From an uncultured Oscillospiraceae bacterium (GTDB lineage: Bacteria; Bacillota; Clostridia; Oscillospirales; Oscillospiraceae), in NCBI GenBank assembly GCA_958436045.1, contig CAUBIP010000002.1:1087-65086 (forward strand): a stretch of 64,000 nucleotides of DNA, written 5' to 3'. Below, piece after piece: positions 1 through 14,925 of the stretch (the stretch's first letter is position 1; every line of letters begins with the position of its first letter). The position numbers were made by a program, and so were the translations under genes. A model generated the notes under the pieces. It worked only from the letters and a program-made list of their open reading frames with translations, was not told the origin of the DNA and made no database searches.

Positions 1-976
1 TATCCGGGTCGTTGGCTGTCTCCAGCATGCAGCAGCGGGGCGGGAGCGTAAAAGCCTTGTTCAGGCACAGCGCCCCCAAAAGCTGCTGGGCCACCAGGTC
101 CCCGCCGGAATAGCCGGAGACGACAATGCTAAACAGCTGCTTGCCCTGCAGAAGATTATTGACCGTCAGGCTCGTCAGGCGGTTGATGAATGCCATGACA
201 TTGGCGCTGAGGGCGTCGTTGTAGTTTGGGCACAACACCAGCAGCGCGTCGCTCTCCAGCACCGCCGGATAGACGTTCTCCACCATCGCGCCGCCGTAAA
301 AGCAGCCGCCTCGCTCGGCAAAATGGGCGCAGACCCGGTAGGAGCAACCGTTGCAGTCATGAATCGTCCCATTGCGCAAGGAGAGCTCCCGGGTCTGCAC
401 CTGCCCGGAAAGCAGTTGGCAGACCCGCCGCCCCAGGGCCAGCGTGTTCGACGTCTTCTGGTTTGATGCGTGCAGCATCAGAAGCTTCGCCTCCGGCCGC
501 ACCGGCACTGCAAATTCCAGTAGCCGCTGCACCAACTGGACAGCCAGGGCGTCATAGGCCGCACGATGGGAAAGGCCCAGTTTTTTGGCGCGGATGTCCA
601 AATTTTGCAGCGAGCCCGTCGCCTCCAGCAGTGGCTTTCCCATCAGCCAACAGCCGGCAAGATTTGCCGCCAACAGCAGCGCCTGGGCAGTCTGCTTGGT
701 GTAGAGCTCGCCTGCACCGTCAATCAGCAGTGCGGCGCAGGCGCCTTGCATCGCATCCGGCGACTGGCGCAGCAGCATCAGCAGGCGGCAGACATCCGGA
801 TCGATGCCCGCCTGGTCCACAGCGATGGCAAAAAGTACCCGCCGCTGCCGCAGGTCCGGCAGCGCGCCGCCCGCCATATCATAGCGCCGGAACGGGACGC
901 CCTGGAGCGCCGTCTTTAAAACAGCCTCTAGCCGCGCGTGCCGCCCGGCGGTCACCACCAATAGTTCATTCGTCAT
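1..976 (-). CDS. Tandem flavodoxin-fold protein, NAD(P)H-dependent FMN reductase / iron-sulfur flavoprotein-like (C-terminus lies beyond window start)
   Basis: Not in the ORF track because no stop lies in the window. Hand translation from ATG (976-974) stays open to nt 1: MTNELLVVTAGRH... The second half reads LLMLHASNQKTSNT...HDCNGCSYRVC...LLVLCPNYNDALSANVMAFINRL...VVSGYSGG. GC3-rich. The start overlaps the stop of the upstream gene (966-976). Confidence 0.6.
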   Translation of the reverse strand, partial: MTNELLVVTAGRHARLEAVLKTALQGVPFRRYDMAGGALPDLRQRRVLFAIAVDQAGIDPDVCRLLMLLRQSPDAMQGACAALLIDGAGELYTKQTAQALLLAANLAGCWLMGKPLLEATGSLQNLDIRAKKLGLSHRAAYDALAVQLVQRLLEFAVPVRPEAKLLMLHASNQKTSNTLALGRRVCQLLSGQVQTRELSLRNGTIHDCNGCSYRVCAHFAERGGCFYGGAMVENVYPAVLESDALLVLCPNYNDALSANVMAFINRLTSLTVNNLLQGKQLFSIVVSGYSGGDLVAQQLLGALCLNKAFTLPPRCCMLETANDPD

Positions 977-2204
977 AATCAAACTCCCGCAGCGCCTGCA
1001 GCACTGGCGCAAGGCGCGCCTGCAGCGCCGGATGCAACGCCTGATATACAGGCTCCACGCCCAACCGGGTCGACCGCAGGCTGCAGCCAAAATACGCGCC
1101 GCCCAGGGCCAGCGTCCCGTCGTGATCCTCCCCGCGCAGCGTCCGCAGGACACTGATGGCCGCAGAGGACAGGCCGGGGGCGATATAGGGCTTATAGCCC
1201 AGCGCCCGCACCTGCAAGTTGGCCGTGACGGTATCCTGCGTCAGCTGCCGGGAGCGCGCGTCGTCATAGCCCTGCCCGGCGGCATTGGCCACCACCAGCT
1301 GCTGGCCGTGGGGCCCAAAAACCTGCCCTTGGGAAAAGTCAACGCCCCGCTGCGCGGCGTAATACTGCGCCCGGGCCCGCATGACACCCAGTCCGTAGCC
1401 CTGGATCTGCTCCGGCAGCAGCCCCGCTGCGTCAAAACGCCCGTCCTCATCCCGGTTCGACGCCAGGAACACCGACTGGCAGAGATAGTCCACCGGGTCG
1501 GAGATCTGCGCAAAAAGCCCGGTAAAGCCCGCCTCTCGGGCCATGCGCGCATAGCCCTGCAGCATATCCCGGTTGCGCTTGTATTGGATCATCCGCACAT
1601 CGCCGACCTGCGCGCCCACCGGCGGCACCCCCAGCGACGCGGTGAACAGCAGCGCATCGCAGTCAAACAGCCGCGCCAGCGGCACCGCCTCCACCGGCGG
1701 CACCCAGCCGCCCGCATGCTCCGGCAGTACCTGGTTCATCTCCAGGCAGTACCGGCGGCACTGGGCCTCGTTGGGGTCATAGATGCCGATGCCCGTCAGG
1801 TCCCGTCCCAGCAGGACTAAGCCCTGCAGGACCGTCCCGCCGACGTCTCCCAGGCCCACCAGATGGACCCGGAAGCCATCCCGGCGCCGCCGGGTCGCCC
1901 GCAGCACATCCCAGCAGCGGGCAAACACCGTATTCAAAACGCACGCGCCCTCCGCCTGCACCAGCGCCGCCAGACCGTCCTCCGCCTGCTGCGGCGGCAG
2001 CGGCTGCAACGCCGCCTGCACATCCTGCGCATCCAGGCGGCGCAGATCGTCGATGCGATACAGCCCCCGGCTTTTCGCCGGGTCCCGCCGGACGGTGATG
2101 ACCAGGGGCGCAAACGGCGCGCTGCACGGTGCAGCGCCCGCCGGCACCCCGCCGCCCCGATCCCACAGGCACAGGCCCTCAAACTGGTATAGTTTTTCCA
2201 TCAA
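966..2204 (-). CDS. L-lactate/malate dehydrogenase-family 2-hydroxyacid dehydrogenase homolog with ~110-aa N-terminal extension
   Basis: 412-aa ORF. Rossmann GxGxxG (VHLVGLGDVGGTV), IYDPN, ISDPVD (cf. LDH NPVD), GLGVMRARA, and GPHG (cf. catalytic GEHG). ATGA start/stop overlap with the giant gene at 2201-2204. Confidence 0.7.
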   Translation of the reverse strand: MMEKLYQFEGLCLWDRGGGVPAGAAPCSAPFAPLVITVRRDPAKSRGLYRIDDLRRLDAQDVQAALQPLPPQQAEDGLAALVQAEGACVLNTVFARCWDVLRATRRRRDGFRVHLVGLGDVGGTVLQGLVLLGRDLTGIGIYDPNEAQCRRYCLEMNQVLPEHAGGWVPPVEAVPLARLFDCDALLFTASLGVPPVGAQVGDVRMIQYKRNRDMLQGYARMAREAGFTGLFAQISDPVDYLCQSVFLASNRDEDGRFDAAGLLPEQIQGYGLGVMRARAQYYAAQRGVDFSQGQVFGPHGQQLVVANAAGQGYDDARSRQLTQDTVTANLQVRALGYKPYIAPGLSSAAISVLRTLRGEDHDGTLALGGAYFGCSLRSTRLGVEPVYQALHPALQARLAPVLQALREFDYDE

Positions 2205-5200
2205 GGCGTCTCCTCCCAGCCCTGCATCCGGTGCAGCGTATTGATATCATCCTGCACATACACCGACGCCGGGATATTTAAATCATAGGACAAATGCCCG
2301 CCCCGGTCCGGCATCCGGGGCCGGAACACGGCCTCGCCCAGCCGCTTGAGGGTCAGCGATTTGCCAAAATAAGAAAGATGCTCCTTTTCCAGCACCCGCA
2401 GAATCTCCTGCGTGCTGGCCAGCACCGTCTCCGAAAGGGCGTAGATCGCCCGCTTGGGGACGCCGCTGAAGAAATGCGGATACTTATACGGCAAGATCAG
2501 ATTGATCGTCGGCAGCATCTCCGTCTTGCGGCTTGTCAGGACGCTGTCACCGCCGATGAAGGGGTAGAGCAGGCTCTCCGTCTGCCAATAACGCATGGCG
2601 GGGATGAAATATTCGCACTCGGTCTCGATATTCTGCAACCGCATCCGGTCCTTGCCCCGGCCGGACATGATCCCAACGATCAGCCGGTCGATTTCCACCT
2701 GCTCCTGCCGCAGCAGCGGCGTCAGGTACTCCATCCGGTAGCCGTTGTGCATAAGATCATCCACCAGGATCATGGGCCGCCGGAAGGATTTGATCGTCCG
2801 GACCTGGTTGACCAGCGTCGAATACCCGGGGTATTCCTTGATCTCCAGCCCCCGGATATTGGGTAGGAAGACCTTTTCGACCTCCAGCCGCTTTGTCACC
2901 GTGTTCGGCACCAGGTCATTGGCCAGGATCTTGCCGAAGGGCACGCACATTTTGCTGCCCAGGCGGCGCTCCCCGGGCGGCACATTCGCCACGCCGTTGC
3001 AGCACTGGACCCGGCTGCGCAGCGCCTGGTTCAGGAGTTCAACATCAAAGCTCAAGATCAGATCTCCCGGGAACATCTGGGCAAAGGAGAGCCGCAGCGC
3101 CCGCCGCGCCTTCTCCACCGCCCGGATGACCTTCGGGTTCTCCCGGTGGGGGGCTTTCAGCTTCTGCAGTGCATCCAGGATCAGCACTACCGGGCGGCGC
3201 ATATCCACCACCCAGACCGACGGCTGCTCCGGCGTCGGGGCAAAGCCCAGCTCTCGCAGCGCCTGCTCCAGTGGTCCGGCGGCCGGGCAGCGGCAGATGG
3301 CATAGGTAATGCTCCGCTCCTGGGCCCGGGCCAGCAGCTCATTGAGAGCCTGCCGCTCCACGCTCTGCCCCGGGGCAACAGCGCCGACGCCGTCGATGAG
3401 CAGAATATTCCCCGAGACCCGCTCCCGAACGCAGGACGCCGCTTGGGCATCCTGCAGCACATCCAGCAGCTGATAGCTCTGGACCGTCCGCCCGCAGGCC
3501 CAGCCCCAGAGGCCGCCGGTGGCCCGGGAGCGCAGCACGCAGCTGGCCACGCCCGGCCATCCGGCCAGCTTTTCCGCCAGCTTCTGCGGGATCTCCGGCA
3601 AGATCTCCTGGGCATTTTCAAAATACAGCTTATGGGGCTGCAATACCATTTTATATTGCAGCGTCCGCAAATACAGGCCCCGCCGGTAGATGAAATTCTG
3701 CACGATCGGGTCCACCAGCATGGAGATATCCAGGTTCTTATCCACATATTCCCGGATGCGGCTAGAGGAGACGCTGTCAAAGAAGGGCGGCAGCTGCAGC
3801 ACCTCCAGCTTGCCGCGGATCACCGTCTCCAGCGGCGGTAGCTGGTCCGTCTCCTCCCGGGAGAAGACAATATGGTCAAAGTCCGCCGCGCCGCCAGTCG
3901 CGCCGGGGCGGTAAGCCGAGGCGTTGCGGACCACATCGCTGCCCACGGCCAGATAGACCGCCTGGTTCGGCAGCAGCTGCCGCAGCCGGGCCAGGTCCTC
4001 CGCCATGGCGATGTTGATGGGAATGTCATCCGGAAAGAGATAGACATCCAGCTGGTCCGCCACGGAAATGCTGGCGATCTGCCGCCGCAGCAGCTTGGCC
4101 AGCGTCTGCTTGCTCCAGGAGAATTCATCCACCGCCAGATAGACGTCAAACTGCTTGGCGCAGATTTCCTGCACAATGCGCTTGTGGCCAGAGGAGAAGG
4201 GGTCAAACGTCCCGGGGAAGAAGGCGATGGGCCGCTCCGGCGGCAGGACCGGCTCCGGCAGATGCACCTGGCACTGCACCAGGAAGCGATACAAATGGTT
4301 CAGCGCCGCCGCGCAGGTAAAGAAATTCAGCTGCCCGGGGTGCGGCTCCTCCAGTAGCGTCAGGAATTTTTTGCAGATGCGGATAAAATACCGCTGCCGG
4401 ACAGAAAGTGGCAGAGACGGATTGTCAAAGACCTGACGGCAGATCAGCGAGAGAGCCCGTTGGTGGATCATATCGTCAAAATGCGCTACACCCGTCAGCA
4501 GCAGGCCAAAGACCTGCTCCGTCACCGCTTCGCTTCCGGCTTGATTCGCCAGCACTACCGCCAGCGTCGTCAGTGCCGCCATAGCCGCTAGGGTATTGTC
4601 CGAATGGACCAGCTCTGCCAGGGACTGCAGGCACTCGTCAAAGGCAGAGTCCGGCAGCTGGCACAGCATCCGGCCCAGGAATTTCGGGATATAACGGGAG
4701 ACCTCCTCCCGCCCCGTCTCCAGCTCGCGGATGAGGTCGATCATCAGCTCATTCTGCTGGTCCGCCGGGAGCTTGGCGCAGAGCGCGACAAGATGCTCCC
4801 CCGCGTAATCCCGCACCGGCAGATGCTCGCTGACGCACAGCAGATTGCTCAAATGCATCGCCGTGTGGAACGCCATCTCCGGATGCGCCGTGACATTTTC
4901 ACACAGCATATCAATATGCGATATTTTCACGCTCCAGTGGACGGCCATTTTCATATTGCTCAGGTAAAGATGCTGCCGCTCTGCATTGCGCAAGGAGGCT
5001 GTCTCCCCCGCGCCCCGCAGCAGGACCGACCGCTCGTAGCCCACGGCGTAAGACTCCCCCGGCTCCAATCCCTGGGCGACACGGCGAACCTCCACCTGTA
5101 GCGCCTCGTCGCCAATCGTCAGCAGCTTGCGGAAAAAGCGCAGCGCGGCAATCTGCTCCCGTTCGGCAGCGCCGGATAAATGCGAGGCGAACTGCGCCAG

Positions 5201-6895
5201 CAGCGCCTGGCACTGCTGCGGCGTAAACGCAGCGTCCGGCACGTGGTTCAGCGTGTCCAGCAGCACAAACCGGTCCTGGGGCAGGTCCCTGCGCACCTGG
5301 GCCAGCAGCACTTCTAAATACTCTGGCCACTTTTCGCAGCTCAGATGACGAAAAATACTCTCGGCCACGATCTTCAGTGAGTTGGAGATCCGCAGCGCAT
5401 GCTTCGGCGCGATCTTTTGATCCGGATGCAGGCACTGCTCGGCATAGCTGGCCCAGATCTGGACCGACTCATTCAAAAAGGAGAGCAGATTCGGCGCCGC
5501 CGCCTGGGGCGGCACACCGGCCGGCAGCTCCTTGCGGTATTTCGGCCCGCTGTTTGTCAGCACCTGGCCCATCATCCGGGCCGCCCGCCGCCGGACATCG
5601 CCGTCATGGTGCATCAGCAGCTCATATAAAAACGCCAGCAGCTTTTGCTTCTGTGCCCGGGTCAGGTACGTGTGATATTCTGAATAAAGATGCAAATACG
5701 TCCGCACGCTCTGCAGATTTTTCTCATTGCGCGCCTGCTCCAGCAACTGCTCGAATGATGCGTCGTGGGTGATCTGGCGCATCAGGCGGATATTATTGTG
5801 GAAGGTCAGATTGCAGATCTGCCGCGGAATCTCCCGCCGAGGCAGCAGAGCCGCTTTCGGCGTGCACGCCGTACAAGCGCCGCGCTGCACCGGATCCGGG
5901 TCCACCCCGTGGCTCAGCAGGTACTGCTCAAAATCATGCAGCTTGGCATAGACCGTCCGGTAGCGCAGCTGCTTTTCCGGTGTCATATCCGCCAGCTTGC
6001 GGAAGATTTCCTGATAGGCTGCCTCCAAGGAAAAGATCTGCACCCGCTCCCGGCCCTCGGCATCCCGGTTGCCCCGGACCCGGAAGTCCGCATAGATCAA
6101 GAGCAGCGATTCGCCGGGCAGGTTCTCAAATTCCAGGTCCCAGGTCGAGTGATTGGCCGCGATGTTGGCAATCGTCGGCACACCGTGCCCCTCCAGCCAC
6201 TGCCAGGTAAAGTAATAGTGCAGATAGGGGATCCGCCGAGCATCCCGTCCACGGCAGCCGAATTTTCCGATGTCGTGGCTCAACGCTGCGGCGCTGCACA
6301 GGGCGATATCCACCGGGATCCCCGCCTGCAGCGCCTGCCGAGCCATATGCACCGCCACATGGTGTACACCGATGGTATGCGATGCCGGGTCGAAGGGCAT
6401 GATCTCCCGCCCGATGCGCATGAGCTCGATAAAATAATCGTCCTCCACCGCCTTCCAGAAGCGAGTGTATTCCTTGGTGATGCGGCTTTGCTGCAGCTCC
6501 GCCTCTGTCACGGCGTCAAGATCCGTCAAGGGATCAAAGGGGCAGTTCTCCCGGCTGATGGCATAGCGCAGCAGGCCCAGATAAAACACTGCCGCTTGCC
6601 GCTGCCCCGGCGTCATCGGGCTATGGCCCGTCTCCGGGAACATTTTCTGGCAGATCTCCTCATATAAAAACGCCAACCACCCCTCCGGCGGCTCTGGGCA
6701 CAGCGTCTGCAAATACAGCCTGCAGGTATTGAGCACCAGCTGGCAGCTGACCCGCTGGCCCACCGGCGGCAGGCAGCGCTCTGCGTAAAAGCCCACCTGA
6801 TCCAGCTGCTTCAGCAGCGTTTTCTTCTCCAAATGAAATTGCGGCGCATACTGCTCCAGCATCCACTGCCGGAGGCTGCTGACGGGTTGCTTCAT
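2201..6895 (-). CDS. Giant multidomain protein: HD phosphohydrolase + HEAT-like repeats + NadD/cytidylyltransferase-like nucleotidyltransferase + PRTase-like domain
   Basis: Uninterrupted 1564-aa ORF with GC3-rich codons. HD signature: GVHHVAVH / LSHDIGKF / IYADF (aa ~175-270). HEAT-like DGDVRRRAARMMGQVL. PGTFDPFSSGHKRIV plus SVSSSRIREY (aa ~890-1050). PRPP-loop-like MILVDDLMHNGYRM (aa ~1375). RBS GGGGAGGA lies upstream of the ATG. Confidence 0.8.
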   Translation of the reverse strand: MKQPVSSLRQWMLEQYAPQFHLEKKTLLKQLDQVGFYAERCLPPVGQRVSCQLVLNTCRLYLQTLCPEPPEGWLAFLYEEICQKMFPETGHSPMTPGQRQAAVFYLGLLRYAISRENCPFDPLTDLDAVTEAELQQSRITKEYTRFWKAVEDDYFIELMRIGREIMPFDPASHTIGVHHVAVHMARQALQAGIPVDIALCSAAALSHDIGKFGCRGRDARRIPYLHYYFTWQWLEGHGVPTIANIAANHSTWDLEFENLPGESLLLIYADFRVRGNRDAEGRERVQIFSLEAAYQEIFRKLADMTPEKQLRYRTVYAKLHDFEQYLLSHGVDPDPVQRGACTACTPKAALLPRREIPRQICNLTFHNNIRLMRQITHDASFEQLLEQARNEKNLQSVRTYLHLYSEYHTYLTRAQKQKLLAFLYELLMHHDGDVRRRAARMMGQVLTNSGPKYRKELPAGVPPQAAAPNLLSFLNESVQIWASYAEQCLHPDQKIAPKHALRISNSLKIVAESIFRHLSCEKWPEYLEVLLAQVRRDLPQDRFVLLDTLNHVPDAAFTPQQCQALLAQFASHLSGAAEREQIAALRFFRKLLTIGDEALQVEVRRVAQGLEPGESYAVGYERSVLLRGAGETASLRNAERQHLYLSNMKMAVHWSVKISHIDMLCENVTAHPEMAFHTAMHLSNLLCVSEHLPVRDYAGEHLVALCAKLPADQQNELMIDLIRELETGREEVSRYIPKFLGRMLCQLPDSAFDECLQSLAELVHSDNTLAAMAALTTLAVVLANQAGSEAVTEQVFGLLLTGVAHFDDMIHQRALSLICRQVFDNPSLPLSVRQRYFIRICKKFLTLLEEPHPGQLNFFTCAAALNHLYRFLVQCQVHLPEPVLPPERPIAFFPGTFDPFSSGHKRIVQEICAKQFDVYLAVDEFSWSKQTLAKLLRRQIASISVADQLDVYLFPDDIPINIAMAEDLARLRQLLPNQAVYLAVGSDVVRNASAYRPGATGGAADFDHIVFSREETDQLPPLETVIRGKLEVLQLPPFFDSVSSSRIREYVDKNLDISMLVDPIVQNFIYRRGLYLRTLQYKMVLQPHKLYFENAQEILPEIPQKLAEKLAGWPGVASCVLRSRATGGLWGWACGRTVQSYQLLDVLQDAQAASCVRERVSGNILLIDGVGAVAPGQSVERQALNELLARAQERSITYAICRCPAAGPLEQALRELGFAPTPEQPSVWVVDMRRPVVLILDALQKLKAPHRENPKVIRAVEKARRALRLSFAQMFPGDLILSFDVELLNQALRSRVQCCNGVANVPPGERRLGSKMCVPFGKILANDLVPNTVTKRLEVEKVFLPNIRGLEIKEYPGYSTLVNQVRTIKSFRRPMILVDDLMHNGYRMEYLTPLLRQEQVEIDRLIVGIMSGRGKDRMRLQNIETECEYFIPAMRYWQTESLLYPFIGGDSVLTSRKTEMLPTINLILPYKYPHFFSGVPKRAIYALSETVLASTQEILRVLEKEHLSYFGKSLTLKRLGEAVFRPRMPDRGGHLSYDLNIPASVYVQDDINTLHRMQGWEETP

Positions 6896-7034
6896 CCCAT
6901 ATCCTCCCCGGGTAAACTCTTTTGATCTCTATCATCCTCCGGGGCGTACCCCGATTTCTTCCATATGCATGCCGCTTGGGCAGCGCCTTATTAAATTATT
7001 TTACCACGTTTTTCGCCCCGGCGCTACCGCTTGG

Positions 7035-7075
7035 CAAAACAAATCCCCGGCCTTGCAAAAAATCGCAGACCGGGG
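7035..7075 (-). terminator. Intrinsic terminator after trmO
   Basis: Minus-strand hairpin CCCCGGTC...GGCCGGGG followed by ATTTGTTTTG, immediately 3' of the trmO stop (7083). Confidence 0.6.
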
Positions 7076-7082
7076 CGTACCG

Positions 7083-7772
7083 TTATGTTTTCTTTTCCAG
7101 GCTGACGACCGTCAGACAGCGCCCGGCCACCCGGAAGCGCACCTCCCAGCCGCCGAAGCCAAAGCCATAGACCCGTGCCGGGTCGTCCTGGTACCGGGGC
7201 CGCGGGTCCTGCGCCAGCACGCCGCGCAGGGCCGCCGCCTGCTCCTCCGGCAGCTGCCGCACCAGCTCCGGCGGCAGCTCAACCGCCAGCGGCTCCTCCT
7301 GGTTCCGGCCCGCAAAGCCCGCTGCCGCATCCGGCACGCAGTCGGCATAGGGCAGATAGGGCTTGATATCCCAGATGGGCGTACCGTCCAGCAGATCGGC
7401 CCCTGCTACATGCAGCACCGGCCCCTGCGGCGTCTGCGGCTCGACACGCAGCAGGCGGACGCAGGAAAGGCCCAGGGAATTGGGCCGGAACGGCGAACGG
7501 GTCGCAAAGACGCCGATGCGCGTGTTGCCTCCCAGCCGGGGCGGCTTGACCGTCGCCGACCAGCGCCCGGCGTTGGCGGAAAACCCCCAGATCAGCCAGA
7601 TATGGGAAAACTCCGCCAGCCCCCGCACCGCGTTTTCATCCCGGAACGCCGGGGCGAATACGATTCGCGCCCGGAGCTCCTCCACCAGGCCGCTCTGCCG
7701 GGGGATTCCAAATTTTTCAGAAAAGTCGCTCTCAATATGCGCGATCTCCTGGATCGTCCACTGCGCCCCCAT
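7083..7772 (-). CDS. trmO: tRNA (N6-threonylcarbamoyladenosine37-N6)-methyltransferase TrmO/TsaA family
   Basis: ORF 7083-7799. The internal ATG at 7772 is preceded by GGAAGGAG. Motifs FGIPRQSG, GVFATRSPFRPNSLG, DGTPIWDIKPY. Confidence 0.8.
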   Translation of the reverse strand: MGAQWTIQEIAHIESDFSEKFGIPRQSGLVEELRARIVFAPAFRDENAVRGLAEFSHIWLIWGFSANAGRWSATVKPPRLGGNTRIGVFATRSPFRPNSLGLSCVRLLRVEPQTPQGPVLHVAGADLLDGTPIWDIKPYLPYADCVPDAAAGFAGRNQEEPLAVELPPELVRQLPEEQAAALRGVLAQDPRPRYQDDPARVYGFGFGGWEVRFRVAGRCLTVVSLEKKT

Positions 7773-8799
7773 TGCTTTGCTCCTTCCATTGCGTCTCATA
7801 GCCTTCAGGATTTTTCACCTGCCAGTTCCAGGCATCCCGGCAGATCTCTGCCAGGCTGCAGCGGGGCTCCCAGCCCAGCAGCGCCCGGGCCCGGGCCACA
7901 TCCGCATAGCAGACAGCAGCATCCCCGGGCCGCCGCGCGGCCATCTGCACTGGGACGGTCACATGGTTGACCCGGCGGAAGGTCTCCACCAGCTCCAGCA
8001 CGCTGCAGCCTCGCCCGGCGCCCAGATTGACCGCCTCGACGCCAGAATGGGCCACGCTGTAGTGCAGCGCGGCCAGATGCCCCCGGGCCAAATCCATCAC
8101 ATGGAGATAATCCCGCACGCCGGTGCCGTCCGCCGTGGGATAATCCCCGCCGCAGATCTGCAGCGCCGGGCGCTGGCCCGCCGCTGTCTGCACCAGCGCC
8201 GTCATCAGGCTGCCGGATGCGCCGTCCTCACCCAAAAGACCGCTGGGGTGCGCCCCGGCGGGATTGAAATAGCGCAGCAGCACCGCGGAAAAATTGCCCC
8301 GCGCCGCCGCTTCATCCCGCACGATCTGCTCAAGCATAAATTTAGACCAGCCGTAAGGGCTGGCGCAGCCGCCGACCGCGGCCCGCTCTGTCAGCGGCGA
8401 GACATCCTGCGTGCCGTAGACCGCCGCGGAGGAAGAGACGATGAGCCGCTTCACCCCAGCGCGCCGCATACACTGCAGCAGGGACAAGATCGCCCCCAGA
8501 TTGTTCGCATAATAAGCAAGGGGCGATGCCACGGACTCCGCCACGGATTTTCGCCCGGCAAAATGGAGCACCGCGTCCGGCTGCTCCCGGTCAAAGACCG
8601 TCTGCAGTCCCGCCGTATCCGCCACATCCACCTGGTAAACCGAAGGGGTCTGCCGGGCCACCGCCGTGATCCTGCCGATGACCGCCGGCGCGCTGGCCGA
8701 AAAATCATCCGCGATGACCACCTCCACCCCGGCCTGCAGCAGCAGCGCCGCGGTGTGCGCGCCGATATACCCGGCGCCGCCGGTCAAAAGAACCCTCAT
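7732..8799 (-). CDS. galE: UDP-glucose 4-epimerase
   Basis: MRVLLTGGAGYIGAHT Rossmann start, SPYGWSK (YxxxK), typical GalE length. The 3' end overlaps the trmO start. Confidence 0.85.
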   Translation of the reverse strand: MRVLLTGGAGYIGAHTAALLLQAGVEVVIADDFSASAPAVIGRITAVARQTPSVYQVDVADTAGLQTVFDREQPDAVLHFAGRKSVAESVASPLAYYANNLGAILSLLQCMRRAGVKRLIVSSSAAVYGTQDVSPLTERAAVGGCASPYGWSKFMLEQIVRDEAAARGNFSAVLLRYFNPAGAHPSGLLGEDGASGSLMTALVQTAAGQRPALQICGGDYPTADGTGVRDYLHVMDLARGHLAALHYSVAHSGVEAVNLGAGRGCSVLELVETFRRVNHVTVPVQMAARRPGDAAVCYADVARARALLGWEPRCSLAEICRDAWNWQVKNPEGYETQWKEQSNGGAVDDPGDRAY

Positions 8800-8947
8800 A
8801 GCTTACCCCCTACGCTTTCTTGCCTCCAGTTTACCACAAAACCCCGCCCGGCGCAAGAAAAAAGCCCGCCCGGCAGCCGGACGGACTCACGTGCACAGCG
8901 CCTGCTCCCATTGCATAGACTGAAGGGAAAAGGACGGTGAGCATACT

Positions 8948-9688
8948 ATGCCATTTTTATTTTTAAGCCCCTCGACCCAGGAGTATAACCCTTACGTCAC
9001 CACCGGGAACGAGGAGTACTGGATGAACCGCCTGGCCGACGCCATGACCCCGTACCTGGAGACCTCCGGTATCAATGTCTCCCGAAACGACCCCGCCGGG
9101 ACTGTCGGCAATTCCATCCGGATGAGCAATGCAGGCAACTACGATTTCCACCTGGCACTGCACTCCAATGCCTCGCCCCCGGCGACCAGCGGGCAGCAGA
9201 CCGGGATCGACCTCTACTACTATCCCTCCAGCGCCCCGGCGCTGCGGATGGCCAATATCCTGGCAGATAACCTCCGCCCCATTTACCCCCAGCCGGAAAA
9301 AGTCCGGACCCTGGCCACCACCTCACTGGTGGAGGTACGAGCTACCCGCGCCCCGGCCGTCCTGGCAGAGCTGGGCTACCACGATAACCCCCAGGACGCC
9401 CAGTGGATTGAGAACAATCTCCAGACCATCGCCCGGGCCCTGGCCACCGGTGTGTGCGAATATTTCGGCCTGCCGCTTCTCTCTCCGGGCGAGGTCCGCA
9501 ACGCCGTCGTCTCGACGGACGGCAGCAACCTGAATCTGCGCGGCGGTCCCTCGACCACCGCGCCGGTGCTGCAAAAGGTCCCGGACCATGCCTCCGTGGA
9601 GGTCCTGGGTGAGTCCGGTGGCTGGTATGTCATCCGCTACGACGGGCTCGTCGGCTACGTGCTGGGCAATCATCTGCTGTTTTTGTGA
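8948..9688 (+). CDS. N-acetylmuramoyl-L-alanine amidase (Amidase_3-like) with C-terminal SH3b-like domain
   Basis: LSPSTQEYN, DFHLALHSNA and AELGYHDN motifs. C-terminal GWYVIRYDGLVGYV is SH3-like. Confidence 0.7.
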   Translation: MPFLFLSPSTQEYNPYVTTGNEEYWMNRLADAMTPYLETSGINVSRNDPAGTVGNSIRMSNAGNYDFHLALHSNASPPATSGQQTGIDLYYYPSSAPALRMANILADNLRPIYPQPEKVRTLATTSLVEVRATRAPAVLAELGYHDNPQDAQWIENNLQTIARALATGVCEYFGLPLLSPGEVRNAVVSTDGSNLNLRGGPSTTAPVLQKVPDHASVEVLGESGGWYVIRYDGLVGYVLGNHLLFL

Positions 9689-10293
9689 TCAGACACCAGA
9701 GCAGGCGGCTGCGACTCGACATCGCCAAGCATCCAGCCCACCGGCTTGCCGCAGACGGGGCACGTCAGCGCCGCGGTCTTTGCCGTGTAGGTATAGCCGC
9801 AGTTGGCGCAGCGCCAGACGATAGGCGACGCCTTGGCAAAGAGCTGCCCGGCCTCCAGCTGCGCACCGCACTGCCGGAAGACCTCGTAATGCACGCCCTC
9901 TGCCACAGCGATGCCCCGCCACAGCCGGGCAGCGTCGGCAAAGCCCTCCCGCTCCGCTGCCGCAGCAAAAGCCGGGTAGACATCGCTGTGCTCCTCCCAC
10001 TCACCCGCCTGCGCGGCTTTTAGATTCTCCGCCACTGTGCCCAACACATAGGGATAGCCTGCCGAGATGGTGAGATTTTCCAGGCCGCCCCGGTTCCATT
10101 TGCAAAGCAGCTCCATAAATTCCTGGGCGTGGGCCAGTTCATTGGCCGCCGCCGTCTCAAAGATCCGGGCGACGACCTCCAGGTCCTCCCGCCTAGCAAC
10201 GGCGGCGGCCAGCTGGTAGCGCGTGCGGGCCTGCGATTCTCCGGCAAAGCTGCGGGCCAGATTTTGACATGTCTCAGAAGTTAAAAAATCCAT
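9670..10293 (-). CDS. rbr: Rubrerythrin
   Basis: Ferritin-like four-helix region with ExxH pairs (ELAHAQEF, AEGVHYEVF). C-terminal rubredoxin-type CANCG...CPVCG. Confidence 0.85.
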   Translation of the reverse strand: MDFLTSETCQNLARSFAGESQARTRYQLAAAVARREDLEVVARIFETAAANELAHAQEFMELLCKWNRGGLENLTISAGYPYVLGTVAENLKAAQAGEWEEHSDVYPAFAAAAEREGFADAARLWRGIAVAEGVHYEVFRQCGAQLEAGQLFAKASPIVWRCANCGYTYTAKTAALTCPVCGKPVGWMLGDVESQPPALVSDHKNSR

Positions 10294-10343
10294 AGATTTC
10301 CTCCGTTTTTCCGCATGAAAGTTTCCTTCTCCGGAGAGTATAA

Positions 10344-10385
10344 ACAGGCGCCGCGGTATTTATGCCGCAGCGCCTGTATTTTTTA
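10344..10385. terminator. Terminator-like GC hairpin between the rbr promoter region and the small ORF
   Basis: ACAGGCGCCGCGG / GCCGCAGCGCCTGT arms with one mismatch. Followed by ATTTTTTAT on the plus strand and TTTAT on the minus strand. Confidence 0.45.
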
Positions 10386-10403
10386 TCATCCGGGAGGAAC
10401 ACC

Positions 10404-10568
10404 ATGAAGCAAAAAAAGCAGCAGCGCACCACGCCGCCCCAGCAGGAGACGCCCTTTTCCGGGCCGATGACAAACTTCCAGTCCAACCAAACCGACCCGC
10501 AAGGCAGCTGGACCGGCTGCCCCGTCCACCGCGATGAGGTCCCAGTGCAGGACGCCGACGATCTGTGA
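10404..10568 (+). CDS. Small hypothetical protein (54 aa)
   Basis: GGGAGGA RBS 6 nt upstream of the ATG. GC3-rich codons. MKQKKQQRTTPPQQ...GSWTGCPVHRDEVPVQDADDL. Bracketed by hairpins. Confidence 0.45.
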   Translation: MKQKKQQRTTPPQQETPFSGPMTNFQSNQTDPQGSWTGCPVHRDEVPVQDADDL

Positions 10569-10594
10569 CCGCAGGCCGCGCCTGAACAAAGCAA

Positions 10595-10623
10595 AAGACC
10601 CGTGAGAAAAACTCATGGGTCTT
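10595..10623. terminator. Bidirectional terminator shared by the small ORF and tRNA-Arg
   Basis: AAGACCCGTGAG-aaaaa-CTCATGGGTCTT hairpin with T-runs on both strands. It abuts the tRNA 3' end. Confidence 0.7.
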
Positions 10624-10700
10624 TGGTACGCCGGAAGGGACTCGAACCCCCGACCTACTGGTTCGTAGCCAGTCACTCTATCCAACTGAGCTACCGGCGC
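10624..10700 (-). tRNA. tRNA-Arg (anticodon ACG), CCA encoded
   Basis: 77-nt cloverleaf: GCGCCGG / TAGCTCAGTTGGATAGAGT / anticodon loop CTACGAA / GGGGGTTCGAGTCCCTT / CCGGCGT-A-CCA. Confidence 0.9.
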
Positions 10701-10816
10701 ATACACACCTCACAAGGTGCTTAGATATAATAGCACAGCCAATCGGAAATTGCAAGGGATTTTTTCAAGAAAAACTATTTTTTACAACGGCTGTACACAA
10801 TATTATTTCCCCCAGC

Positions 10817-10845
10817 TTGACAAAGATGCGGTTTATGTGTATTCT
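10817..10845 (+). promoter_or_regulatory. Sigma-A-type promoter of the CHAP/SLH gene
   Basis: TTGACA, 17-nt spacer, TATTCT. Confidence 0.55.
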
Positions 10846-10928
10846 CATCTGTAGAATTTAGCAGCCTGGCATGCGATACGCCCGGACGCTGCAATCCCTG
10901 CAAAATCCCTGAAGAAAGAAGATGGCGT

Positions 10929-13019
10929 ATGAAAAAACGTGTACTTAGCCTGGCACTGGCTGTGCTGATGGCCCTCTCCCTGCTGCCGACGGCAGCCTCG
11001 GCCTCTACAGGCGGCAAGACCGCCGATGACGCGATCAACTGGGTCCGAAGCAAAGCCGGGCAGCCCTTGGATTACGACGGCGCATATGGCGCCCAATGTG
11101 TCGACCTGATCTGCTATTACTATCGCTGCCTCGGCCAGACCTCCCCTGGCGGTTACGCCAAGGAGTACCGCACGAATGCACTCCCGTCCGGCTGGCAGCG
11201 GCTCCAGGGCGTCCAGCCCCAGAAGGGCGATATCCTGGTCTACAATCCGAGCGTCAAAAATGAAGCCGGCCATGTCGCAATCTATGAATCGGATTACAGC
11301 ACCTGGCATCAAAATTATGCCGACCGGCAATATGTCGTCAATGTCACAAATGTGAGATATGACCAATTTGACAATTCCTACTGGGGCGTGATCCGCCCGG
11401 ACTTTTCCAGCGTGACCCCGGCACCGACCTTTGACAACATCGGCGCAGACGTCTACCGCCTGCTCATTCGGTCAGACGGCTGGAAGCATATCGGGACGAA
11501 TTATTACGACTCCAATAGCTGGAACGTGACGATCTCCCGCACCAACAATGCCAATGACCCAGCTCAGATCTGGCGTTTTATCCGCCAAGCTGACGGCAGC
11601 TATTATGTCCAGAATATGTTCAACGAGGAATACCTCACCTACGAAGGCAATTGCGCCTCGCAGGCGAAGGTGACGACCGCCCCCTTTGCTGGCCAGCGGG
11701 CGACGCGCTTCCAATGGTACATCAAAAGCTACAACGGTATTTTCAAACTGATCGCCAAGGACTCGGTCACGGCTGGCAACTGGCTCGTGCTCGATTGCAA
11801 AGACGGCTCCTCTGCCGCCGGGACGCAGATGCAGCTGTACGGCAACTGGGCGCACACCAGTGACAACAGCAAGGCCCAGCTGTTCAGCCTGTACACCATC
11901 AATTATGTCAAACCCGCAAGGCCCGCCGCAGTGCAGATCACCATTCCGTCTGTGGTAAGTGCCAAGACGCGCTTTACCGTACAGTGGACCGAAAGCCCCC
12001 TCCAGGGCGTGATGGATGAGCGATGGTATCGGATGCGGATTCGCTCGGAGGACGACTCCCTCGTTGCCAATTTCGAGTCGACCGCCAGGAGTGACACCTG
12101 CGCAATCTCAAAGCCGGGCCGGTACTATGTCACAGTGCTGGCAAAGAATACGAAATTTAAGGACTACTCGACGGAGACCAGCAGGGTCTACTTCACGGTC
12201 ACCGCAGAGCATATCCACCAGTACACAAGCACCGTCACGCCGCCGACCTGCACAGAACAGGGGTATACGACATACACCTGCACCTGTGGCGACTCCTACC
12301 GCAGCGATTACACCAACCCGCTGGACCACAGCTGGGACGCTGGTGTGGTCACGACCCCCGCAACGGAAACCGCCCCCGGCGTCAAGCGCTATACCTGCAC
12401 CCGCTGCAGCGCGACGCGGACGGAGGCCATTGCGCAGCTCACCTGCCCAAGCGCCGGATTCACCGATGTCCCGGGCTCTAACAACTGGGCCCATGCCGGG
12501 ATCGACTACTGCGTCTCCAACGGCCTAATGTACGGTATCGGCGGTGACCGGTTCGCCCCGCAGACCGCCACAACCCGGGCGCAGATCGTCCAGATCCTCT
12601 ACAGCCTGAGCGGCTCGCCAAGCGTCAGCGGCGCAGCGCCGTTTACAGATCTAACGCAGGACTGGTACAAAAACGCCGTGCGCTGGGCGTACCAGACCGG
12701 TGTCGTCTCCGGAATGAGCGCGACGACCTTTGCCCCCAATGTCCCGGTGACACGGGAGCAGATCGCGGTAATCCTGATGGGCTACGCGCAAAAGGTCCTG
12801 GGCGTCTCGCGCACCTGGACGCCTGCGGACTTGAGCCGTTATCCGGACGCGAGCCGCGTTTCTGCCTGGGCGCACAACGCTCTGGCGGACACCGTCTCCC
12901 TCGGCCTGATCTCCGGCACGCTGCGCGGCGGCCAGGCCTACCTGGATCCCCAGGGCAGTGCGACCCGGGAACAGGTTGCGACGATCCTGATGCAGTTTTG
13001 CAAAAATGTAAAACCGTGA
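10929..13019 (+). CDS. Secreted CHAP-domain peptidoglycan hydrolase with ricin-type lectin-like region and three C-terminal SLH domains
   Basis: Signal peptide MKKRVLSLALAVLMALSLLPTAASA. CHAP Cys/His (GAQCVDL, GHVAIYE). QxW repeats (QIWRF, FQWYI). SLH repeats (FTDVPGSNNWAHAGIDY, FTDLTQDWYKNAVRWAY, YPDASRVSAWAHNAL). Confidence 0.8.
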   Translation: MKKRVLSLALAVLMALSLLPTAASASTGGKTADDAINWVRSKAGQPLDYDGAYGAQCVDLICYYYRCLGQTSPGGYAKEYRTNALPSGWQRLQGVQPQKGDILVYNPSVKNEAGHVAIYESDYSTWHQNYADRQYVVNVTNVRYDQFDNSYWGVIRPDFSSVTPAPTFDNIGADVYRLLIRSDGWKHIGTNYYDSNSWNVTISRTNNANDPAQIWRFIRQADGSYYVQNMFNEEYLTYEGNCASQAKVTTAPFAGQRATRFQWYIKSYNGIFKLIAKDSVTAGNWLVLDCKDGSSAAGTQMQLYGNWAHTSDNSKAQLFSLYTINYVKPARPAAVQITIPSVVSAKTRFTVQWTESPLQGVMDERWYRMRIRSEDDSLVANFESTARSDTCAISKPGRYYVTVLAKNTKFKDYSTETSRVYFTVTAEHIHQYTSTVTPPTCTEQGYTTYTCTCGDSYRSDYTNPLDHSWDAGVVTTPATETAPGVKRYTCTRCSATRTEAIAQLTCPSAGFTDVPGSNNWAHAGIDYCVSNGLMYGIGGDRFAPQTATTRAQIVQILYSLSGSPSVSGAAPFTDLTQDWYKNAVRWAYQTGVVSGMSATTFAPNVPVTREQIAVILMGYAQKVLGVSRTWTPADLSRYPDASRVSAWAHNALADTVSLGLISGTLRGGQAYLDPQGSATREQVATILMQFCKNVKP

Positions 13020-13782: not shown

Positions 13783-14925
13783 TCACCCCGGCTGCCGCGG
13801 CAGAGCAATGGACAGCTCATAGCACCGCTCGCCCCCCGCCTGTTTGCGGGGCCGAAAGCCGTACTTTTCAAAGAAGTGGACCGTCGTATAATCGCCGTCG
13901 GGGATCGTACAGCGGATCTTACTCTTGCCCTGGCTGCGGCAATGGCTGACAGCCTGGCCCAGCAGCTGCACAGCAAAACCGCGGTACTTCCGTTCCGGCA
14001 GCACGCCAAGATAACGGATCACGCCGTGGTCCTGCTCCTGCTCTGGCTCCAGCAGCAGCGCGCCGACCAACGCCTGCCCCTGTCTGGCATAGTACAGCGT
14101 ATTCGGCGCCCGCACCAGGATGGCACGCATCTGTGCCTCGACCGCTGCTTCGTCCGTCCAGGTCAGCGTGCCGCAGCGCTGCACCCAGTTCTGGCGGCGC
14201 AGGTCCATATACAGCGCGCCGCCGTCCTGGGCTAACTCAAACCAGAGGTTATAGTCCTCCCCCAGAGAAGCGCTACGCTGGCACAGGCTGTCCAGCCGGT
14301 TCTGCGTCGAAAGGGCCAGGTCCAGATGGGCGTTGTCATTGAGATAATCCAGCGTAAACCGGCCGCCCTCATACTGCACCCGGCTCACGCCGGTGTTATC
14401 ACACCGGCCCGCCCGGTTCATCGTCTGCCGCGTAAAAAACAGCTCCGCCTGCACAGCCCGCAGGATCGCGCCGTGGGTAAAAATCGCCACCGTCTGGCCC
14501 GCGTGGCGCTCCGCGACCGCCCGAAGCGCCTCGATAAAGCGCCCGGTGGCCTGCTCCAGCGTCTCGCTGCCCGGTGCCTGCCAGGCCCACATATTCTGGC
14601 GGAACACGCGCATCTGCTCGGGGTAGAGATGCTCCAGCGTGCCGAAGCTCTGGTCCTCCCACGTGCCGAAGCATATCTCCCGGAATGCCGGCTCCCGGCG
14701 CAGCCGCAGCCGATGGTCCTTACAGACCGGCAGCGCCGTCTGCACTGCCCGGTTCAGATCGCTGGCGTAACAGGCATGCAGCCGCACCCCGGCGAAGCGG
14801 CGGCGAAGCGCCTCCGCCTGCCGCACTCCGGTGGGCGTGAGCAGCGTGTCGTGCTGGCCGTGCAGCCGCCGGTATAAGTTCCCCTCCGCCTCCGCATGGC
14901 GGATGAAGTAGATCGTCGTCATCAT
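13783..14925 (-). CDS. Histidine phosphatase (phosphoglycerate-mutase-like) / GNAT acetyltransferase fusion protein
   Basis: N-terminal TIYFIRHAEAEGN (RHG motif) ...FTHGAILR. The C-terminal half is GNAT-like (RKYRGFAVQLLGQAVSHCRSQG, FFEKYGF). The start shares one nt with the upstream stop (TAATG). Confidence 0.75.
   Translation of the reverse strand: MMTTIYFIRHAEAEGNLYRRLHGQHDTLLTPTGVRQAEALRRRFAGVRLHACYASDLNRAVQTALPVCKDHRLRLRREPAFREICFGTWEDQSFGTLEHLYPEQMRVFRQNMWAWQAPGSETLEQATGRFIEALRAVAERHAGQTVAIFTHGAILRAVQAELFFTRQTMNRAGRCDNTGVSRVQYEGGRFTLDYLNDNAHLDLALSTQNRLDSLCQRSASLGEDYNLWFELAQDGGALYMDLRRQNWVQRCGTLTWTDEAAVEAQMRAILVRAPNTLYYARQGQALVGALLLEPEQEQDHGVIRYLGVLPERKYRGFAVQLLGQAVSHCRSQGKSKIRCTIPDGDYTTVHFFEKYGFRPRKQAGGERCYELSIALPRQPG

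Follow-up and report, generated by a model that had tools for sequence, protein, structure and literature searches.

A giant multidomain protein with a NadD-like adenylyltransferase module heads a conserved three-gene operon in Clostridia

A giant gene and its two operon partners

The DNA analysed here, referred to as the window, is a 64,000-nucleotide stretch from an uncultured Oscillospiraceae bacterium (GenBank assembly GCA_958436045.1, contig CAUBIP010000002.1, positions 1,087 to 65,086). Near its left end lies a giant gene that heads a conserved three-gene operon with genes encoding a lactate dehydrogenase (LDH)-like dehydrogenase and an FMN_red protein. The giant protein combines five modules: an HD phosphohydrolase domain, a helical HEAT/ARM-like scaffold, a NadD-like nucleotidyltransferase (NTase) domain, a GNAT-fold domain and a type-I phosphoribosyltransferase (PRTase)-like domain (Table 1). 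The preliminary description of this DNA had reported one uninterrupted 4.7-kb open reading frame (ORF), and this is indeed the case: a single frame runs from an ATG to one terminal stop, all motifs quoted in that description are found at the residues given there, and the remaining two same-strand frames contain 38 and 53 stops across the gene. The ORF is also unbroken in relatives, at 98% identity in two Oscillospiraceae metagenome-assembled genomes (MAGs) and at 35-54% identity in ten further genomes (Oscillospiraceae, Lachnospiraceae, Lentihominibacter and unclassified Clostridia).

The LDH-like gene was found directly 3' of the giant gene in 12 of 12 genome loci. Using profiles of the two partners, the LDH-like gene was located in 18 of the 21 loci read and the FMN_red-like gene in 17, including that of the cultured Sinanaerobacter; one locus lacking the FMN_red-like gene is on a contig that ends before it. 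The loci bearing these partners span 25-98% identity of the giant protein.

A profile of the LDH-like family matches L-2-hydroxyisocaproate dehydrogenase (1hyh, E 2.7e-8) and L-lactate dehydrogenases (~1e-7) in the Protein Data Bank (PDB). The window copy has no Pfam match, and related, more distant members match Ldh_1_N. The Rossmann GxGxxG, DPVD and GPHG motifs are shared with L-lactate and L-2-hydroxyisocaproate dehydrogenases, while the Oscillospiraceae members differ from L-LDH by an additional N-terminal extension of ~100 aa. In a comparison with a B. stearothermophilus LDH sequence, the partner keeps apparent equivalents of R109, R171 and H195, with an invariant Met in place of the catalytic Asp168 and an invariant Asp in place of Asn140.

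The third gene product matches Pfam FMN_red (PF03358) at E 1e-15 to 1e-17 and contains an invariant CX2CX4CX8C motif. A compact four-cysteine motif is a feature of the iron-sulfur flavoproteins (Isf), and its combination with an FMN_red domain likens the partner to these proteins and to NADPH-dependent FMN reductases. It differs from the iron-sulfur flavoproteins in the spacing of the cysteines and in an additional N-terminal domain of ~160 aa. NCBIfam offers no name for either partner, nor for a 76-aa ORF without family match that follows the FMN_red-like gene in Sinanaerobacter (L013:17100-17330, + strand). In one other locus (L008), a purine riboswitch (14063-14161, + strand; 42.3 bits, above the gathering score) is located ~1.3 kb beyond the FMN_red-like gene. 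Because it was not found in other loci, it probably belongs to an unrelated downstream gene.

The giant gene is probably the start of its own transcription unit, since a terminator-like hairpin follows the upstream trmO gene. This hairpin was omitted by the automatic promoter/terminator scan because its loop exceeds the length allowed, and the scan was uninformative. The genes upstream of the giant gene show no conservation across loci, with trmO retained next to it solely in near-identical genomes.

Table 1. Features of the giant gene, its operon and related loci. Coordinates are window positions unless a locus is named.
Feature	Position	Strand	Remarks
Giant gene	2201..6895	-	single intact ORF, 1564 aa, ATG start, stop codon 2201-2203
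N-terminal region, aa 1-164	6404..6895	-	moderate conservation, W73 invariant
HD phosphohydrolase domain, aa ~165-285	6041..6403	-	Pfam HD and invariant H..HD..H..H..D
Helical HEAT/ARM-like scaffold, aa ~345-880	4256..5863	-	weak, consistent alpha-solenoid matches
NadD/NMNAT-fold class-I adenylyltransferase domain, aa ~888-1082	3650..4234	-	motifs FFPGTFDPFSSGH, DEFSWSK, GSD...Y, SSSRIR
GNAT-fold domain, aa ~1088-1245	3161..3634	-	by Foldseek; without conserved acetyl-CoA loop
Type-I PRTase-like domain and C-terminal helices, aa ~1250-1564	2204..3148	-	motifs CVPFGK, PNTVTK, VDDxxHxGxR, ESxxYPFxGGD
Operon partner 1, LDH/2-hydroxyacid-dehydrogenase-like, 412 aa	966..2204	-	start overlaps giant-gene stop by 4 nt
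Operon partner 2, FMN_red-family flavoprotein	1..976	-	runs off left window end; placed at 5-976 by tblastn
Shine-Dalgarno-like GGAGGA	6902..6907	-	6 nt before giant-gene ATG; direct sequence reading
Terminator-like hairpin, GCCCCGG...CCGGGG with T-rich tail	7036..7076	-	3' of upstream trmO; read by eye
LDH-like and FMN_red-like pair with HD-less variants	L017:11794-13855; L019:11548-13627; L018:3361-5113; L020:998-3110		
PPDK_N genes	L015:3-1694; L016:699-3278; L020:5365-7989; L021:5317-8004		dikinase ATP-binding domain

Family size and carriers

A word-indexed search with the whole protein returned >6,000 significant matches. The family thus numbers >6,000 non-redundant homologues of full length, most of them derived from MAGs; the best 120 matches are all 1500-1640 aa long, with 95-100% query coverage. 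A profile built from three distant members gave 7,857 matches. Wherever a source gives a taxonomy, the family belongs to Clostridia. Many homologues come from gut Oscillospiraceae, Lachnospiraceae and Anaerovoracaceae, and the cultured carriers include Anaerovorax odorimutans and Sinanaerobacter chloroacetimidivorans. Names in the sources are limited to "hypothetical protein", "cytidyltransferase-related domain protein" and "nicotinate(-nicotinamide) nucleotide adenylyltransferase".

When the last 480 residues were searched exhaustively with HMMER against 1.84 billion cluster representatives, 388 matches were obtained, 161 of them at E<=1e-30. The 150 matches listed are all giants of this kind, their fragments or shorter variants; hence, among the matches listed, the GNAT-like plus PRTase-like module appears confined to the giant-protein architecture.

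The preliminary description knew of no characterised protein with this architecture, and we likewise found none with the five modules in PDB, Pfam, NCBIfam or the literature searched, in which no paper on the family was encountered. The whole protein and the family profile gave weak PPAT/NMNAT and CAND1 matches alone against PDB sequences, with no PRTase and no HD protein among them. To that earlier account we add the conserved pair of oxidoreductases, the large family size and the variants described below.

The N-terminal region and the HD domain

Domain searches across the family used 29 diverse members. The N-terminal region (aa 1-164) has no Pfam or NCBIfam family match. It is followed by the HD domain, which Pfam HD (PF01966) recognises at a borderline 22.2 bits in the window protein (cut-off 22.0) and in 16 of the 29 members at E<=0.01. 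The family alignment reveals H173, H207-D208, H226, H249, D253 and D270 as invariant, and the motifs GVHHVAVH, LSHDIGKF and IYADF occupy aa 176-183, 205-212 and 267-271, respectively. A six-residue H..HD..H..H..D set of this kind is typical of two-metal HD enzymes. The Pfam score together with these residues bears out the HD module that had been predicted. Its best relative is the HD part of the DVU_1551 NTP transferase family (NCBIfam, E 1e-6). A profile of the HD domain alone found nothing significant in the PDB, the best match being an HD-GYP protein (4mcw, E 0.05) over the first half of the domain.

The helical scaffold

Evidence for the helical region consists of weak matches that agree in kind: HEAT_2 in the window protein (Pfam, E 0.0035), HEAT in four of the 29 members (best 8e-7), further weak solenoid matches to HEAT_EZ and Adaptin_N, and CAND1/2 when the family profile is compared with the PDB (E 8e-4 to 4e-3). 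The HEAT/ARM-like repeats proposed from the sequence, such as HHDGDVRRRAARMMGQVL at aa 429-446, are tentatively upheld by these weak matches. The region contains a series of conserved polar residues (W654, K657, H681, N684, R695, E716 and E726).

AlkD and QueG are bacterial examples of nucleic-acid binding by HEAT-like repeats, and the ~500-aa solenoid with its conserved polar residues could be imagined as the binding platform for a macromolecular substrate, the chemistry being RNA-end adenylylation, capping or repair, or protein modification. HD and NTase modules also co-occur in CCA-adding enzymes, albeit with a different NTase fold. We consider a macromolecular substrate highly unlikely: no RNA- or DNA-binding domain match was found, the neighbouring trmO is confined to the near-identical genomes, the operon partners are small-molecule-type oxidoreductases and NadD-fold enzymes act on small phosphomonoesters.

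A NadD-like adenylyltransferase in a compact C-terminal body

The NadD/NMNAT fold of the NTase domain has strong support. CTP_transf_like (PF01467) matches all 29 members, with 21.1 bits in the window protein against a cut-off of 21.0. Each of the top 50 structures returned by Foldseek is a NadD or NMNAT, with a best E of 1.3e-8 and TM scores of 0.77-0.79 to M. tuberculosis, B. anthracis and B. subtilis NadD, over ~200 residues and at 17-22% identity. The NadD/NMNAT-type module of the preliminary description is therefore secure as a fold. The motifs PGTFDPFSSGH (aa 894-904) and SVSSSRIREY (aa 1041-1050) contain, as in NadD, the GxFxPxxxxH and SS(T/S)xIR elements of the ATP site, which are invariant in the giant family. 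The complete invariant set comprises A891-F-F-P-G..F-D-P-F900, H904, DEFSWSK929, G985, D987, Y995, S1043-S1044 and R1048; by eye, the lysine of DEFSWSK is located at the position of NadD's PPHK. The window protein has SSSRIR where the family consensus is ISSTRIR, and distant members have the canonical ISSTRIR.

All 29 members also match TIGR00482 (best E 2.3e-13). The window protein scores 29.6 bits against a cut-off of 112.45 for this model and 29.5 against 150 for NF000840. Because ~30 bits falls far below the NadD equivalog cut-offs, which overall range from 112 to 315, the domain is by these scores NadD-like, not NadD. It further differs from NadD in being embedded in a 1564-aa chain rather than forming a ~200-aa protein. 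No second NadD-like gene was found in the 64-kb window or the fetched loci, an observation that says little about the whole genome.

The preliminary description invoked a link between nadD and yqeK in Firmicutes, and such a link does exist: mycoplasmas have a NadD-YqeK fusion, in which YqeK proofreads NadD's wrong products (PMC9426524). The giant protein resembles this mycoplasma fusion (PRK07152; JCVISYN3A_0380) in having a NadD-fold adenylyltransferase and an HD phosphohydrolase in one polypeptide. However, the domain order is reversed, ~600 aa separate the two domains, three modules and two operon partners are added, and some relatives are HD-less. Furthermore, the match to PRK07152 is confined to the NadD part (positions 3-192 of 361) and leaves the YqeK half without a counterpart in the HD domain, and no YqeK model occurs in the family-model match lists for the giant protein.

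An AlphaFold2 model of aa 884-1564, computed with 47 homologues, has a mean predicted local distance difference test score (pLDDT) of 90.4 and a predicted TM score (pTM) of 0.90. In view of this pTM, the NTase, GNAT-like and PRTase-like modules are predicted to form one rigid, compact body. A second model, of aa 1085-1564, reached pLDDT 93.5 and pTM 0.92. Foldseek relates the GNAT-like domain to NatD (4ua3, E 1.1e-4), AtaT (6gtr, TM 0.53) and GCN5, with overall E values of 1e-4 to 6e-4 and TM scores of 0.43-0.53; no Pfam acetyltransferase model matches any of the 29 members. What had been a weak call for a GNAT-like module has thus gained fold support, with boundaries at aa ~1088-1245 in place of 1095-1225.

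A type-I PRTase-like domain

The closest fold match of the C-terminal domain is B. subtilis xanthine phosphoribosyltransferase (XPRT; 6w1i_B, E 1.2e-5, TM 0.49), followed by UPRT, APRT and PurR (E 3e-5 to 6e-4). These comparisons agree with the type-I PRTase-like fold that had been proposed, and extend it to aa ~1250-1564, beyond the original 1340-1455. The domain shares its core fold with the type-I PRTases (XPRT, UPRT, APRT) and with PurR. As in type-I PRTases, a hydrophobic strand leads into two acidic residues and then, where a helix begins, into a loop with a Gly (VDDLMHNGYR). The domain differs from them in having (N/K)GxR in place of the usual TGxT, and in ~130 additional C-terminal helical residues.

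The segment in question, MILVDDLMHNGYRM (aa 1375-1388), contains the family-invariant residues D1379-D1380, G1385 and R1387. MILVDD and then LMHNGYR form a putative 13-residue 5-phosphoribosyl 1-pyrophosphate (PRPP) motif, with the acidic pair and the Gly invariant and both Thr of xxxTGxT replaced. Judged by eye, CVPFGK falls roughly at the place of the PRTase pyrophosphate loop and YPFxGGD roughly at that of the base-binding loop. Using hhalign, DDLMHNG aligns with DDFLANG of B. subtilis XPRT, an alignment that covers the PRPP loop alone and has low probability; the family profile gave no meaningful alignment with E. coli UPRT.

The domain lacks the type-II fold of the nicotinate, quinolinate and nicotinamide PRTases, and the type-II enzymes of NAD synthesis (PncB, NadC, NadV) are absent from the 50 best Foldseek matches as well as from the Pfam, NCBIfam and PDB sequence matches. 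The suggestion that the giant protein contains a homologue of the nicotinate PRTase that feeds NadD is hence not upheld. The wider idea of pyridine-nucleotide salvage in one chain survives in part: the NadD-like fold stands, whereas the PRTase-like fold is type I and not that of nicotinate PRTases, the HD sequence does not resemble YqeK and the NadD scores lie far below their cut-offs.

Architectural variants

Family members lacking the HD domain are 1050-1310 aa long, begin with a Met and align from window residue ~340-390 onward. A search of their loci found no separate HD homologue nearby. In one group (L017, L018 and L019), the NTase motifs are intact and the LDH-like and FMN_red-like genes are kept; in L017, the next gene after the pair encodes a BcrAD_BadFG/DUF2229 activase-like protein. 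In a second group (L015, L016, L020 and L021; 1100-1244 aa), a gene for a PPDK_N protein stands immediately upstream in all four loci. The two genes overlap in two loci and are 2 and 11 nt apart in the other two. The three complete PPDK_N proteins are 860-895 aa long, the L015 copy being cut by the contig end. In L020, the oxidoreductase pair is located ~5 kb upstream of the giant gene, not downstream.

The PPDK_N-coupled variants have degenerate NTase motifs, with GSD and SSTxxR eroded and, in four of five, an Asp in place of H904. Every architectural variant retains intact PRTase-like motifs. Because the HD domain is lost and the NTase motifs have decayed in variants that keep the PRTase-like motifs, comparison of the sequences identifies the PRTase-like module as the constant core, with the HD domain, an active NTase and the dikinase as interchangeable companions. 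All three companions handle phosphate esters or ATP.

Two further members deviate in other ways. In L012 (3844-10683, + strand), the giant-gene frame remains open for ~660 codons further upstream (2280 aa without a stop), which may reflect a fusion with the upstream gene or a mere stop-free frame. A 1457-aa member (P0364) aligns to window residues 60-1082 and 1229-1558, with ~100 aa in place of ~146 between these segments, and by this alignment its GNAT-like domain may be smaller than that of the window protein.

The variants bear on two alternative accounts of the protein. The first regards it as the housekeeping adenylyltransferase of nicotinate or nicotinamide mononucleotide (NadD), equipped with a YqeK-like HD diphosphatase for proofreading, with PRTase and GNAT folds that sense PRPP or nucleotides without catalysing a reaction, in the manner of PurR and PyrR, and with a HEAT scaffold. 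NadD models are the best-scoring functional models in all 29 members, NadD structures are the best fold matches, the NCBI, JGI and UniRef names are NadD-type, a NadD-HD fusion has precedent (PMC9426524) and PurR is among the PRTase-fold matches. Nevertheless, we consider this account unlikely. The window protein reaches ~30 bits against equivalog cut-offs of 112-315; the family was encountered solely among sequences attributed to Clostridia, and its variants lose the NTase motifs and keep the rest, which would be unexpected for an essential NadD. The two paired oxidoreductases, moreover, have no role in NAD synthesis.

The second account views the protein as a largely non-catalytic pseudo-enzyme scaffold that organises the two oxidoreductases. 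The decay of the NTase motifs in one subtype, the GNAT-fold domain without a cofactor loop and the borderline Pfam HD and NTase scores of the window protein all point in this direction. In the HD-fused type, however, the catalytic-type residues of the HD, NTase and PRTase-like domains are the protein's most conserved positions, invariant over 35-100% identity, and a purely structural role is accordingly the least probable of the readings considered here, in our view extremely so.

Proposed function

We tentatively propose that the giant protein is responsible for making and editing a metabolite of the adenine dinucleotide type, joined through a pyrophosphate, that is tailored or used by the two oxidoreductases, a possibility to which we give more credence than to any other single account, short of an even chance. 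What the sequences and models show is the ORF with its folds and conserved catalytic-type motifs, the compact C-terminal body, the three-gene operon and the variants; all substrates, reaction directions and inter-module coupling are inferred, as follows. The XPRT/UPRT-like PRTase domain would bind PRPP or a ribose-5-phosphate compound, and form or hold a ribotide. Enzymes of the NadD-type nucleotidyltransferase family adenylylate or cytidylylate phosphomonoesters, and the adjoining NadD-fold domain would use ATP to adenylylate a phosphomonoester, most simply that ribotide, giving the dinucleotide-type product. The N-terminal HD domain, with its putative two-metal site, would hydrolyse the product or wrong products, an editing or turnover role analogous to that of YqeK towards NadD. 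Scaffolding or ligand binding may be the task of the HEAT-like region and of the GNAT-fold domain, which is degenerate. The co-transcribed LDH-like NAD-type dehydrogenase and the Fe-S-flavoprotein-like FMN_red protein would either modify the base or acid moiety through redox reactions or make use of the product. The presence of a PPDK_N gene upstream where the NTase motifs decay fits a need for ATP-dependent creation or activation of a phosphate ester beside the PRTase-like core.

Several observations weigh against this proposal. The giant protein has SSGH, with Ser at the position of the first His (or Thr) of HxGH. The PRTase-like and GNAT-like Foldseek matches are weak (TM ~0.4-0.53, identity 9-17%), and Pfam Pribosyltran (PF00156) matches one of the 29 members (E 0.0018). 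PRTase-fold domains also act as pure ligand sensors, and PurR is one of the structures matched. The GNAT-like domain is without the conserved acetyl-CoA motif A (Q/RxxGxG/A), the beta4-alpha3 loop after ILLIDGV being variable on reading of the alignment. On the basis of its family-model matches, the HD domain is not YqeK-like (COG1713), and the existence of HD-less variants implies that editing is not essential to the core function. In addition, Rfam scans of window positions 1-12000 and nine related loci revealed no riboswitch 5' of the operon, and no other regulatory clue hinting at a ligand was found there; the matches worth noting were one tRNA and the unrelated purine riboswitch in L008.

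The pairing of an NTase with an HD domain also invites an account in terms of a signalling nucleotide, an Ap4A (diadenosine tetraphosphate)-like dinucleoside polyphosphate or other alarmone, with the NTase as synthetase, the HD domain as hydrolase and the PRTase fold as nucleotide-binding regulator. A synthetase and an HD hydrolase in one chain is the logic of RelA/SpoT and GlnD. To our knowledge, however, NadD-fold enzymes do not serve as dedicated messenger synthetases. YqeK-type HD enzymes hydrolyse Ap4A (cited in PMC9426524), and in the best PRTase-fold match (6w1i) XPRT has ppGpp bound. The first half of the HD domain is most like an HD-GYP phosphodiesterase, but this weak match (4mcw, E 0.05) is not significant. 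No sensor or output domains were found in the giant protein, and the HD-less variants and oxidoreductase partners fit metabolism better, so that a signalling role appears very unlikely.

The proposal of a dinucleotide-type metabolite can be taken one step further, to a version that we regard as doubtful. Here, the three-gene unit would make and edit an entirely new cofactor or metabolite of the adenine-dinucleotide type, and would do so in many clostridial lineages, those of the gut among them. Phosphoribosyl transfer would attach the base or acid moiety, which the NadD-like domain would adenylylate and the two oxidoreductases would tailor, with the PPDK_N dikinase replacing the adenylyltransferase step in a sister lineage.

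Other features of the window

Upstream of the giant gene, the listed TrmO ORF (7083-7799, - strand) overlaps the end of a GalE-like epimerase ORF (7732-8799, - strand) by 68 nt; the true TrmO start is probably a later Met. A tRNA gene (10627-10700, - strand; Rfam, 64 bits) is located between a rubrerythrin-like ORF and an ORF for an S-layer homology (SLH) protein. The latter (10929-13019, + strand) encodes 696 aa with CHAP, RicinB-lectin and SLH domains, and is probably a cell-wall-anchored peptidoglycan hydrolase; its G+C content is ~0.55, compared with ~0.62-0.66 in the upstream genes. A 380-aa ORF further along (13783-14925, - strand) fuses a histidine phosphatase domain (His_Phos_1, E 3e-49) to a GNAT acetyltransferase domain (E 4e-11). 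A reading of the giant gene as part of a defence system was dropped, given that it occupies the same place with the same two neighbour genes across distantly related genomes.

Implications

All folds of the giant protein belong to known superfamilies and the HD-NadD fusion has precedent; the five-module architecture, the fixed oxidoreductase partners and the modular variants are undescribed. The family is abundant and yet is without a curated family, a solved structure or a paper. Names such as "nicotinate-nucleotide adenylyltransferase" represent over-annotation from one domain and are unfit for metabolic reconstructions. A single chain with three seemingly functional active sites, its constant oxidoreductase pair and natural variants that exchange the HD or NTase step make the system a defined, testable target. 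If the protein is an elaborated NadD, it would represent a new way of controlling NAD synthesis. If instead a new nucleotide-linked metabolite is made or edited, the operon would add a further pathway to the metabolism of dominant gut anaerobes.

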